Positions 43,253 through 47,542 of a stretch of 64,000 nucleotides of DNA are shown in pieces. The DNA lies in assembly GCA_010015805.1 (NCBI GenBank), contig ML978126.1, forward strand, positions 2,046,001-2,110,000, read 5' to 3'. Both the position numbers and the translations under genes were made by a program. Within the stretch, counting starts at the first letter, position 1. Each line of letters starts with the position of its first letter. The DNA is from Rhizodiscina lignyota. Lineage: Eukaryota. The notes under the pieces were generated by a model that was given only the letters and a program-made list of their open reading frames with translations, was not told the DNA's origin and ran no database searches.

Positions 43253-44399
43253 ATGGTATGTCCTTCTCTCATAGTGCAAAACCGCGTTTCTTCATCTATT
43301 TCTGAGCTTCGCTAACATCACCTCTGCAGACCTCCATAGGCACAGGTTACGACCTCTCAAACTCCGTCTTCTCCCCCGATGGCAGGAACTTCCAGGCATG
43401 CAGCACCCAGCTCCCCCATCATCGCCACCAAAAACTGATGCTTCAAACAGGTCGAATACGCCGTCAAGGCGGTCGAGAACGGAGGCACAGCAATCGGCAT
43501 AAGATGCAAGGACGGTGTGGTGCTCGCGCTGGAGAAGCTGGTGAGCAGCAAGCTGCTCAAGCCTGGTGCGAATAAGCGCATAGCGACGATAGATCGAAAT
43601 ATGGGTGTGGTAAGCTCCTCATTCCCTCACATGCTACACGATATAATATATTGGAACAGAGCTAACAATTGCAAACAGGTTTCAGCAGGTCTCCTCCCCG
43701 ATGGTCGTCACTTCACGTCCCGTGCGAGAGACGAGGCGGCGCAGTGGCGAAGAATGTATAAAGCTCCTATCCCGACATCCTCGCTTGCAGACCGCATGGG
43801 CAGCTACATCCAGGCATACACGCTGTACAATAGTGTGCGACCGTTTGGTGTTACGTGCATAATCGCCGGCTGGGATTCTGAGGCAGAGCTCGCAGTGGAT
43901 GGACAAGTTGGCTCAGGACCAACGGTCGGTGCAGGTGGAAAGGTAGACAAGATGAAACATGGAGGACCGTTCTTGTACATGATCGAGCCAAGTGGATCAT
44001 ACTGGGTATGCACTATCTCTGTGGATCTTTTGCGTGGTCTTTTTGCAACATTGGACTGATATATATCAGGGCTACTACGGCGCTGCGACCGGCAAGGGCC
44101 GCCAATCAGCCAAGTCAGAACTGGAGAAGCTTAATCTGACCGAGGGCACTCTCTCACTAGAAGAGGGCGTCAAGGAGGCCGCACGAATCATCTACATTGC
44201 ACACGAGGACAGCAAGGACAAGGACTTCGAGCTCGAGATGACTTGGGTAAGTTCACTAGACGGCCCGACAAAAGGCCGGCATGAGGAGGTGCCCAAGAAG
44301 ATACGAGAGGAAGCCGAGCGACTGGCTAAGAAGGCATTGGAGGACGATGATGAGGAAGAAGAGGCCAAGGCCGAAGGTGGTGAGCGCATGGAAGAGTAG
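43253..44399 (+). CDS. PRE10: 20S proteasome subunit alpha-7; introns 43256-43329, 43396-43450 (GC-AG), 43610-43678, 44006-44069
   Basis: M|TSIGTGYDLSNSVFSPDGRNFQ|VEYAVKAVENGGT, YTLYNSVRPFG, LYMIEPSG, GKGRQSAKSELEKL, acidic tail. Confidence 0.95.
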
Positions 44400-44730
44400 A
44401 AGTTTCGGGACCGAGATTGATGTCGTGAGAGGGAAGAGCATCAGCACACGTTCGTCATTGCGGGATATAGGACGTGCAGATTCTGTACTTTAAACATTTT
44501 CACGGAGCATGCTGGCGCTTGATAGAGAGCAATATATCCACCTTGCATCGACTTCTTCATGACGGAACATACCGGGTCCTTCAACCTCAGGACGACGTGT
44601 ATCTTGTGCGCGAGGAAGGCGGCGAAGGCTCCCAGTCATTCTCTCTGTCCCACTTGTTTATGCATAGTAATTCTGCAGCCTTTCCTGCTGAATTATACGA
44701 GGGCCAAGCTGCCTTCCGAGAAGGCGAGAG

Positions 44731-45800
44731 ATGCCTCCCATCGTAATATTGATTCGGCATGCCGAGGCGTTGCACAACCAAACACATAAGTCACCCACTG
44801 GTCCCTTACTCCCGCGAATACACTCTTCCATCACACAGCTCTAGGATTTATGTACTGATTTTCCCAGCACTAGACTGGGACATTCCAGACCCGAAACTCA
44901 CACCGCTCGGGAGGAAGCAATGTCTGGAGCTTTCAGCACACCTGCGCAAGGATGTGTCGATGGCAAACCATGTGGAAACCATCATCGTCAGTCCGATGCG
45001 GAGGACGGTAGAGACTGCTCTGATCGGCTTGAATTGGTTGATTGCTGGTGGAGCGAAGATTGAACTGGATGCGGACTGGCAAGGTAAATATTTCGTGCGT
45101 TCAGATTTTATGTGTAGCATCTGCAAGCTGTAATTTTCTATTCATTTACAGCATTGCTCCCTTAGTATCCACTCAGCGCTTTACAGTTTATATGATTTCT
45201 TCATACTCTAATCTCTGCAAGAGTACGCTCTCTTTCTGCAACAATTAGCACCCTCACACATATCAAAACCCAACCCTAACCCCCCCTTCAGAAAATAGCG
45301 ACAAGCCCTGCGACAGCGGGAGCGACCGCAACATCCTCGCCGAAGAATTTCAAATCATCTCCGCCCTCTTCTACCAAGTCGACCCTCTCTACCCCGACAA
45401 GAAGACTCCTCTGCCAGACGGGAGAGAAAATCCGTACGCCTGGACGCGCAGTGCCATCCTCGCGCGCGGCCAGCGTTGTCTTCGCAAATTGTACGAGCGG
45501 CCCGAGAAAGTGATTGCGGTGGTCTCGCACTCTGGATTCTTAAGATTAGGCGTTAGTCGCACGCAGTATGCCAATGCGGATTACCGGATCTTCGACTTTC
45601 CGGAGCGGAAGAGTGAGGACGAGGAGTTTGAGCTTGTGGAGAGGGAGGAGACAGCGACGCCGGGAGGTGGGATGGGGAAGAGTCCGAAGGGGAAGTGGGT
45701 TCTAAGGCATGATGACTTCCCACATGAGGTGGATGAGAAGAATGAGAATATGGGGCAGGCGAATGGCGAAGCCACTTCTGAAATCCCGGCAGAGAATTGA
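44731..45800 (+). CDS. Histidine phosphatase / phosphoglycerate-mutase family protein; introns 44786-44870 (probable AT-AC) and 45084-45291
   Basis: MPPIVILIRHAEALHN (RH motif), DPKLTPLGRKQC, VSPMRRTVETA, WQ|ENSDKPCDSG, IAVVSHSGFL. Confidence 0.82.
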
Positions 45801-47542
45801 GGACAAACGACTAGTCGTCGTGATATTACTTGCATAATTGCATCTACATAGAATGATCGTCGTCAGGATAGACTATGGGGTTGATAGACACGGAAGAGAC
45901 TGGATCAGCCACCATTTCATAAACATTGAATGATTCTTATAATCTCAGCAATAGCCTTTTGTATATCCATGCATATAGAATGAAACAGTTGCCCTCTGCC
46001 TTGCACTTGCAACTGGCTTGGACTGCATTCAGCTCGACGCACCACTCGCTAGAATAGATGGATTACACCATACGCTGGGGCTAAGATACCCGGCAGACAC
46101 TGTTGCACTGACTTCAGATAGAAGTATGCTGGACGGTACGCTGGGGCGAGAGCGGCTGTCAAGTGGATCACATGCATAACTAGTGCGTGTTTATGTTCAG
46201 TGGCGAAGTTCGTGAGCGGCATAGACGACAGAGAACGGCGTGAAGCTTGCTTTGAAGGTTCTGACACACGTGGCCATTGCGGTGAAAATGAACTACCTAC
46301 CGAGCCCAAATCCGAACAGATGAGGCAGTGCAGTGTCGATGGCAAGGATCGGAGGTATCTGATACCCTGGAGATCAATACTCCGTACTTGTAGCAGATAG
46401 CTTTAAAAAAAAATGATGCGTGACATCAAGCCTCGGAACAGACTGAATCTGGGTTGAAAAGTCTCACTCTGGAAGATATGCCGGACAGTCACAGTACTTC
46501 GTGTAGAATTGGCGTTATCGAAGCGAGACCGGATAGATCCAGCAGCATGGAAGTGGGAGCGAACTTGAGTCGGATGAAGTCCCAGTTCCAGATCTCCAGC
46601 ACGGACTGAGCTTCTCGAGCAAACGCGTAGAATATTCTATACGGTGACGTAGCCAATAGACACCCAGGATATGGCGGCAGCACGGATAAACGTGTTCAAA
46701 AAGAGACCTATCAGGCGCGAGAGCAGGAAGCATGACGCTCAGAGCATGACGCTCAGAGCCTGCCCAGCCCAGCAACGCTGTTACTGGGTTGAGGAATGGG
46801 CATTGTGCACTCACCGATGGGCAGTATACAATCGCCAGAAATGGTGTGGAGCCATCCCATTTATTGGATTGACGTGCTGCGCCCCTTGGGCCGCTCCCGT
46901 CGATGGTGGTGGACGAGCAAGCACCTCAGGTCGGTGTGCCCCTGAGATGAGGCAAACGTAACGGCGGCCATCCCTGTCAGCCACCACTCTGCTTTGCGAC
47001 ACTGACGAAATGGAAGGACGCCGCCCCATTCGCACGTCTTCTGCTGGCCGAGCAAGACAGGCAGCGAAGGGCGCGGGAGCGACGTCGATACGTACAGAGT
47101 AAGCAGAGAAAAGGGGGAGGTGGATGGTCGGCGTCTGGCACGAGCCGCGGTGCATGACGATGTTCAGGTGTTTCGGCTGCTCAGCCACTGCAGACAGACA
47201 GTCGGTGGCCTCCTGCAGGGCCCAGCAATGCGGCGAGAAGCTGGGTGTGGGTGGTGCACGCTGGGTGGATCGGTCGTGTCTTGGCCCAAGCAGCAACCTG
47301 ACACTTCGACATATTTAAAACAACGACCATCGTTGCCCGTTTTCAGCTCCACCACAAGCCCCCCGTTCTTTGACGAAACACCTGTCTACGCACCGTCACG
47401 ACTTTCTTATCCTTCTTTTTGTCCTCAAAGCATCGAGGATTCATTTATTTGACGCACCGCAAGCCTGTTTGATCGCTGCGCTGTGATTGCTGAAGCTCGA
47501 CGCTAACAAAGCATTTGACACAACCCTCACTTCAAGCTCACC

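Follow-up and report, generated by a model that had tools for sequence, protein, structure and literature searches.

A probable natural AT-AC intron of the major-spliceosome type in a histidine phosphatase gene of filamentous ascomycetes

Introns with AT and AC ends that otherwise carry the signals of the major (U2-type) spliceosome are termed AT-AC II introns, and in animals they have been described in the sodium-channel genes SCN4A and SCN5A and in TAF2 (Sheth et al. 2006, PMC1557818). They are rare, with 24 cases among about 610,000 introns of five species (PMC1557818). In both yeast and human, a G-to-A mutation at the first intron base (+1) was shown to be rescued, less efficiently, by an engineered G-to-C change at the last one (Parker and Siliciano 1993 and others, cited in PMC5029451 and PMC1557818). 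With regard to fungi, AT-AC II introns have been hypothesised in xylanase genes of filamentous species (PMC1557818), RNA sequencing (RNA-seq) of Fusarium graminearum detected AT-AC junctions in FGSG_08743 and FGSG_10073 (PMC3577648), and a nested AT-AC intron of RPL30, whose donor does not resemble ATAAGT, is spliced in Saccharomyces cerevisiae to yield a side product of 1-2% (PMC5029451). The coding sequence of FGSG_10073, previously modelled incorrectly, comprises 786 nucleotides (nt) and has a 52-nt intron close to its 5′ end (PMC3577648). The kind of intron addressed here is thus already known, from the animal genes, the xylanase hypothesis and the single Fusarium cases. In this work we analysed a 64,000-nt stretch of genomic DNA (contig ML978126.1, positions 2,046,001 to 2,110,000; hereafter, the window) in which the first intron of a histidine phosphatase gene has AT and AC at its ends. 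On the basis of its sequence, its conservation in orthologues and the covariation of its two ends, this intron (44786-44870) is very probably a natural U2-type AT-AC intron, spliced by joining 44785 to 44871.

Ends and signals of intron 1 in the window and in orthologues

The 5′ part of the gene, with the signals proposed for the intron, is arranged as follows.

44731..44785, plus strand: exon 1, with ATG at 44731, MPPIVILIRHAEALHNQT, then C as the first base of a split codon
44786..44870, plus strand: intron 1, 85 nt, phase 1, AT...AC ends (proposed U2-type AT-AC intron)
44786..44791, plus strand: 5′ splice site, ATAAGT, the U2 consensus GTAAGT with A at +1
44853..44859, plus strand: candidate branch site TACTGAT, of the CTRAY type; branch A 44858, at a distance of 13 nt from exon 2
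44863..44870, plus strand: 3′ end of intron 1, CCCAGCAC, with AC at 44869-70 as the proposed 3′ splice site
44871..45083, plus strand: exon 2, with TA completing Leu, then DWDIPDPKLTPLGRKQC...LDADWQ, then G

A first-pass annotation, made from the letters of the window, had called for a phase-1 intron at this place. The frame of exon 1 indeed runs into a stop at 44842-44, so that an intron is required, and the frame encoding DWDIPDP is open from 44753; together, the frames set the phase. The letters on which that proposal was built are all present, namely C/ATAAGT at 44785/44786, TACTGAT at 44853-59 and CCCAGCAC/TAGACTGG around 44870/44871 (slashes mark the cuts). The AC is flanked by AGs on both sides, with CAG at 44865-67 in the intron and TAG at 44871-73 at the start of exon 2; as annotated, their use as acceptors would make the product one residue longer and one residue shorter, respectively. 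Joining 44785 to 44871 gives ...HNQT-L-DWDIPDP..., and the HN-x3-D[WY] spacing expected for the family holds, since HN-x4-[WY and similar]-x3-D[PA] is found in 72 of the 83 homologues of full length.

The 72 homologue N-termini that fit this pattern (HN-x4-aromatic-x3-D[PA]) were used as a profile, against which the products of 1,628 in-frame donor/acceptor pairs were scored. The AT-AC pair obtained 124.5 bits, the best value among GT/GC-AG, AT-AC and AT-AG pairs, and was followed by ATAAGT..CAG (119.3 bits), ATAAGT..TAG (117.9 bits) and GTCCCT (44801)..TAG (117.6 bits). A few pairs scored above AT-AC, up to 126.9 bits, all of them devoid of any splice signal. In this comparison, which draws on DNA and protein evidence alone, only the boundaries 44786..44870 reproduced the spacing of the family.

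The state of the first intron base in relatives can be read even from some protein models. After HN-xx, three homologue models read HKS, NKS and NKF (Coniosporium P0005, Saccharata P0010 and Cryomyces P0078), a reading that requires x-A-Y-A-A-R and hence A, not G, after the split-codon base. A survey of metagenome sequences was carried out with a pattern neutral for A or G at +1 (R-H-A-[EQ]-[AG]-x-H-N, seven free bases, [A/G]TNNGT), and it returned 57 loci, 44 of them orthologous and 13 not. Forty-two orthologues were scored; a degenerate copy (L006) and a locus cut by its contig end (L013, which still shows ..AAACAC/GAGATTACC) were left out. The acceptor was placed by the conserved protein spacing alone, blind to dinucleotides. 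With this rule, every one of the 35 AT donors was paired with a terminal AC (36 of 36 with the window), which answers positively the check for conserved AT..AC ends that the first-pass annotation had suggested. GT donors ended in AG in six of seven loci, the seventh (L016) giving AA; in this locus a CAG lies 3 nt upstream, and its use would lengthen the product by one residue. Among the 42 scored loci and the window, intermediates of the AT-AG or GT-AC kind were not found.

When the profile was allowed to search freely over all acceptor positions, AC came out on top in 32 of 36 AT cases and AG in six of seven GT cases. The four misses were L017, whose 283-nt intron was out of range, and L026, L034 and L049, which were near ties with distant positions; in all four the spacing rule assigns AC. 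The AG of GT-AG orthologues lies at the position of the AC, as seen in L045 (..GTAG/AGGACTAC) and L042 (..ACAC/AGGACTAC). Furthermore, in L020 and L039 the AC is the only route to the conserved protein, as its surroundings offer no in-frame AG. These results lend comparative support to the proposal that this ascomycete intron is a natural AT-AC intron of the U2 type, as AT and AC are kept together in orthologues and G at +1 is paired with G at the last base (−1).

The 43 introns corresponded to 40 distinct sequences, 34 AT-AC and 6 GT-AG. Among the 34 unique AT-AC introns, the last base was C in all cases, the base before the AC was C or T in 32, and A was found at +3 in 32 and at +4 in 31. 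Variant AT donors, all with a 3′ AC, were ATATGT (L005, L032), ATACGT (L001) and ATGAGT (L007, L036). The length was 47-108 nt in 33 of the 34. A simple heuristic search for branch motifs located a YTRAY 11-16 nt from the 3′ end in every one of them. The distance from the branch A to exon 2 was 11 nt in 24 introns, 12 in 6, 13 in 2 (one of them that of the window), 14 in 1 and 16 in 1. In the canonical intron 2 of the same genes the distance ranged from 10 to 32 nt, with values of 12 nt or less in 7 of 18 cases vs 30 of 34 for AT-AC (of 24 intron 2 rows, 5 had no motif and that of L045, a gene without intron 2, was spurious). The six GT-AG versions of intron 1 showed distances of 11, 11, 15, 18, 23 and 23 nt. 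This pattern suggests that what defines an AC 3′ site may be its distance from the branch point, which is short and fixed.

Signals of the minor (U12-type) spliceosome were also looked for. The donor ATATCC(TT), which the first-pass annotation had described as absent, is found neither in the window, which reads ATAAGTCA, nor in any of the 34 unique AT-AC introns, although the G at +5 in the survey pattern excluded such donors. No U12-type branch site (TCCTTAAC) was found near the 3′ end; CCTTRAY is absent from the window intron and had one stray match (L031) among the 34. The lack of U12 splicing in Ascomycota, including Pezizomycotina, had been stated as established and is backed by PMC2846911. 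Intron 1 hence combines AT/AC ends with a U2-like donor and a U2-type branch site, the features of the AT-AC II class, and in a phylum without U12 splicing such donor and branch signals would be those of the major spliceosome.

Some loci of the survey showed particular features. In L017 (oriented 1531-1814) the AT-AC intron spans 283 nt and contains a second CTGAC 82 nt before its end, likely because of an insertion within the intron. L006 (match 1501-1537) is a Cenococcum-like second copy in which a stop closely precedes IRHAQALHN and an ATG is missing; ATAAGT...CACAC is still present, the family motif is no longer encoded after the AC, and the locus looks like a decayed duplicate. The exon 1 of L020 (oriented start to ~68) reads ..CRPPKLILIRHAEAEHN, with no ATG within the 37 nt before the contig end, and its start codon may be altered or located elsewhere.

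Age of the AT-AC ends, phosphatase gene and public gene models

A phylogenetic tree was built from 67 rows, comprising 41 proteins from the loci and the window, each 80 residues or longer, and 26 reference proteins, mostly named; L026 (45 amino acids, aa) and L046 (60 aa) were too short and were left out. The root was placed at the midpoint, and intron states were scored for the loci and the window, not for named proteins. The deepest starred split, with a Shimodaira-Hasegawa-like approximate likelihood ratio test (SH-aLRT) value of 99, separated the window and named Dothideomycetes (Aureobasidium, Cenococcum/Glonium, Botryosphaeriales and Pleosporales) from named Xylariales and many other loci, and AT-AC introns were present on either side of it. 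The tree requires at least two changes to GT-AG, one in a clade of six loci and one in L045, and none of 500 shuffles of the intron-end labels was as clustered as the observed arrangement. With the reservations imposed by a midpoint root, AT-AC would be the older state, predating a split that may represent either a class-level divergence or an old duplication. Locus L045 is Xylariaceae-like, shows GTGAGT..TAG at the site of intron 1 and has no second intron.

Orthologues of the Pleosporales type consist of continuous open reading frames (ORFs) of about 255-261 aa (JGI metagenome; P0022, P0038, P0043, P0068 and P0179), with those of P0068 and P0179 on metagenome contigs as long as 112-116 kb. 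The order Pleosporales has apparently lost both introns. The HN-x4-W spacing of these intronless proteins equals that of the AT-AC product, as expected if intron loss had copied the spliced form.

The remainder of the gene in the window comprises two further features.

45084..45291, plus strand: intron 2, 208 nt, phase 1, canonical GTAAAT...CTAAC...CAG
45292..45800, plus strand: exon 3, with AA completing Glu, NSDKPCDSGS...VVSHSGF..., and the stop TGA at 45798-45800

All three exons are open, and the motifs RH..HN, ENSxKPCD and SHSGF are kept. Exon 1, whose N-terminus agrees with the 72 homologues (pattern MPPT.IL.RHA..HN), contains the RH..HN catalytic motif of histidine phosphatases (IRHAEALHN). 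Exon 2 alone matched Pfam PF00300 (His_Phos_1) with 25.6 bits (cut-off 21.7, E 1.1e-05) over profile positions 21-62; since the match begins at position 21, the start of the domain is supplied by exon 1. Exon 3 alone gave no match in Pfam, and its homologues carry PF00300. A search with exon 3 retrieved 388 homologues at E ≤ 0.001, and the best 120 of them belong to Pezizomycotina, mainly Dothideomycetes, with about 45-63% identity. The Pfam match, the N-terminal RH and a second conserved His, which lies in VVSHSGF of exon 3 and is aligned with the homologues, place the product in branch 1 (phosphoglycerate-mutase-like) of the histidine phosphatase superfamily. We take the RH and the second His residues to play the catalytic roles in this gene's product.

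A gene for proteasome subunit alpha-7, with short introns, is located upstream (window 43300-44400, plus strand), and one of its introns is in frame within the open frame 43439-44059. Its best named matches were from Pleosporales (83-85%) and other Dothideomycetes (79-82%). The phosphatase and alpha-7 genes are also adjacent in annotated Dothideomycetes, as in Paraphaeosphaeria sporulosa (DPSP01_006470/006469) and Aplosporella prunicola (K452DRAFT_287403/287404), and many further pairs of matches to the two genes lie on contigs of equal length; this shared neighbourhood indicates that the window gene is an orthologue. Judged from the proteasome neighbour and the phosphatase gene, the window organism is a dothideomycete-like ascomycete, to which the collections searched contained no closely related sequence.

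Public gene models were found to be wrong at intron 1 in Cenococcum, Aureobasidium, Coniosporium, Saccharata and Cryomyces. The NCBI model of Cenococcum geophilum (P0034) reads HNVENNIPDP, without the conserved KDYS, a reading that fits the forcing of GT four bases into ATAAGT, with an AG further on; L009, L041 and L057 (~1531-1581 in match orientation), 93-95% identical to P0034, encode HN[VA]EKDY[SN]IPDP by AT-AC. Most NCBI models of Aureobasidium (the proteins in question are P0018, P0027, P0074, P0079, P0094, P0106, P0125 and P0128-P0132) are truncated (127-183 aa), partial or provided with a false N-terminus (MAKHCTTSIISDILHRRGF...), and for this reason lack the catalytic RH motif. The correct form is given by a JGI-derived model of A. 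subglaciale (P0140). As for Coniosporium, its model translates the intron, and the models of Saccharata and Cryomyces leave the family pattern there. Pipelines restricted to GT/GC-AG would thus mis-model this gene, with the catalytic RH lost or displaced in most of the wrong models, and allowing ATAAGT..AC would repair them.

A hint on splicing in relatives was provided by P0055, a 250-aa continuous ORF on an Aureobasidium-like Logan contig of 1,632 nt that reads HNVNQEYDIPDP. Over exon 2, this protein agrees with the Aureobasidium melanogenum NCBI model P0074 as far as one substitution close to the end. Since introns of 60-61 nt break the frame in L004, L011 and L012, which are related genomic loci, P0055 must be spliced. 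In addition, the NCBI models P0074, P0094 and P0125 open with intron read-through, with ..HPA or ..RPA directly before QEYDIPDP; in these close relatives of P0055, the intron cannot end in AG, whatever its phase. Exon 3 of L012 was used to search for a transcript/genome pair from the same species; the full-length proteins retrieved did not exceed 89% identity.

Alternative readings of the splice sites

The AGs on both sides of the AC would allow the AT donor to be spliced to an AG acceptor, either CAG 44867 or TAG 44873, giving HNQTPLDW or HNQTHW from an AT-AG intron. Both are in frame with the phase-1 donor, the CAG falls between the branch site and the AC, and in most orthologues an in-frame AG 3 nt after the AC is the next-best acceptor of the free profile search. 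We nevertheless consider this splicing improbable, since it scored lower (119.3 and 117.9 vs 124.5 bits) and the spacing of the family, intronless orthologues included, fits the AC alone. Moreover, L020 and L039 do not contain any such AG, the invariant C at −1 (34 of 34) would not be explained by selection on an AG acceptor, and A at +1 requires a C as last base for the second step of splicing (PMC1557818). A canonical intron could also be drawn from the weak donor G/GTCCCT (44801) to TAG 44873 or CAG 44867, with a fitting phase, a length of 67-73 nt and the same branch site. Its products would include four or five extra residues, HNQTHKSPT[D/AL]W, an insert that occurs in none of the 72 clean homologue N-termini, and they reached 117.6 and 115.3 bits compared with 124.5. 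Given, in addition, that this donor lacks G at +5 and that the arrangement conserved in 35 other loci is the upstream ATAAGT..AC, its use is very unlikely. The best pair of a canonical GT-AG model, 44801..44873 (117.6 bits), was accordingly discarded for its four residues foreign to all 72 clean homologues. The GT at 44790 (ATAA/GTCACC), the one chosen in the Cenococcum model, was likewise rejected; it fits only the AGs at 44838 or 44844, and the resulting introns of 49-55 nt have no branch site, leave long inserts and scored 112.0 and 111.8 bits.

It could also be argued that the gene is unspliced and decaying, or that A44786 represents an assembly error or a private mutation of a former GT-AG intron, and the closest relatives available for an analysis of selection on the coding sequence show about 50-56% identity. 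On the other hand, all exons are open and contain the catalytic motifs, exon 2 exceeds the Pfam cut-off, and the gene lies beside proteasome alpha-7 as in annotated Dothideomycetes. The A is also the conserved state of the family, paired with C at −1. Verification of this base in sequencing data had been recommended, and the same A was found in the contigs of the two runs that contain the 44690-45840 stretch, X1 and X2, which come from different studies. The 54-kb contig of X1 covers the whole stretch at a word depth of 147 and without differences; it is probably the source of the window and hence not independent. The X2 contig, of 190 nt, is identical over 44599-44788. Altogether, decay or error at this position seems most improbable.

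Several observations weigh against a U2-type AT-AC intron spliced as proposed here. The sequence CAC precedes both cut sites, so that a cut at 44782/44868 (CA..AG) yields the same mRNA as that at 44785/44871; among the 36 AT-donor sequences this three-base ambiguity is particular to the window, with one-base leftward slides possible in three loci (L004, L011, L012... L054) and one-base rightward slides in most. The window is atypical in that AGs flank its AC at 3 nt, a CAG on the intron side and a TAG on the exon side, and in the position of its branch A, at 13 rather than 11 nt. The isoforms differ by just 5-7 bits on the profile, and products one residue longer or shorter may be formed in this organism. 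As to the survey, its pattern fixed the donor at +2, +5 and +6, so that conservation there is no evidence and only donors fitting the pattern were sampled, and the 35 AT-AC loci are related by descent, with only about two independent switches to GT-AG. No splice joints were found in X1 or X2, neither of which is on record as RNA and the second of which covers only 44599-44788. The identification of P0055 as a transcript is indirect, from the length of its contig and its uninterrupted ORF, and the absence of a minor spliceosome in the window organism is taken from a group-level report (PMC2846911).

Proposed splicing mechanism and comparison with known AT-AC introns

For the U2-type AT-AC intron favoured by these data, we infer removal by the major spliceosome in the window organism, with a contact between the first and the last intron base. 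ATAAGT would pair with U1 and U6 as GTAAGT does, save at position +1, and the CTGAT branch site would act in the ordinary way. For the second step, a contact between A at +1 and C at the end of the intron would stand in for the G/G contact of canonical introns, and exon 1, ending at C44785, would be joined to T44871. The distribution of intron ends points to AT-AC as an ancient state within this family of filamentous-ascomycete genes. It has probably been held because single changes, to GT-AC or to AT-AG, would splice badly; as a consequence, the options of a lineage would be to retain AT-AC, to convert both ends to GT-AG at once or to dispense with the intron. A non-canonical state could in this way last over class-level divergences, presumably since the route to GT-AG crosses a fitness valley.

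A different origin can be envisaged, in which an ancestral U12-type AT-AC intron took on the donor and branch signals of the major spliceosome when early ascomycetes lost U12 splicing. Under this scenario, which we regard as unlikely, the AT-AC ends and a U12-like branch distance of 11-13 nt would have been retained, and the intron would be trapped, each single step towards GT-AG being deleterious. In a milder form, the AC may be chosen by its distance from the branch point and not by scanning; if so, a slow second step would be kept as a tuner of phosphatase expression. The first-pass annotation had raised the possibility that the intron limits the rate of expression. Whatever its origin, a U2-type AT-AC intron at this site would form part of a natural series of AT-AC, GT-AG and intronless states in organisms with the major spliceosome alone. 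The family would thereby confirm, by comparison, that the first and last intron bases make contact, and would also be a convenient substrate for studying the choice of an AC 3′ site.

No earlier report of this AT-AC intron was found in a literature search, which left subscription papers outside; as far as that search reaches, the family-wide conservation, the paired switching of ends and the fixed branch distance are new. FGSG_10073 was considered as a possible orthologue. A text search of the literature for its identifier found nothing; of its two published primers, neither matched any fetched locus within 4 mismatches, and two chance matches appeared at 5.

The phosphatase intron resembles the AT-AC II introns of animals in its AT...AC ends, in a donor otherwise proper to the major spliceosome (/ATAAGT; PMC5029451) and in its long retention in orthologues. 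It differs from them in being short (85 nt in the window), in having a fungal CTRAY branch at a near-fixed 11-13 nt from the AC, and in its host, a filamentous ascomycete from a group without the minor spliceosome, where removal by the major one is deduced. With U12-type AT-AC introns it shares the terminal dinucleotides and the short distance from branch to 3′ end; unlike them, it has a donor other than ATATCC(TT) (34 of 34), no TCCTTAAC-type branch near the 3′ end and a host lineage devoid of that machinery. In the engineered double mutants, as in this family, A at +1 is tolerated together with C at the last base, and the covariation between GT-AG and AT-AC would be their evolutionary counterpart, but those mutants are less efficient laboratory constructs, whereas the phosphatase intron is a natural state across a gene family. 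The RPL30 case also involves an endogenous AT-AC junction in an ascomycete without the minor spliceosome; in contrast to that side product, AT-AC splicing would be the only way to the conserved protein in the phosphatase gene. Finally, the F. graminearum RNA-seq cases indicate that such introns are processed in Pezizomycotina, and the layout of FGSG_10073 resembles that of the phosphatase gene, both being instances of natural AT-AC introns in this group. The Fusarium and xylanase reports refer to single genes in single species, whereas the AT-AC intron of the phosphatase gene is conserved throughout its family.

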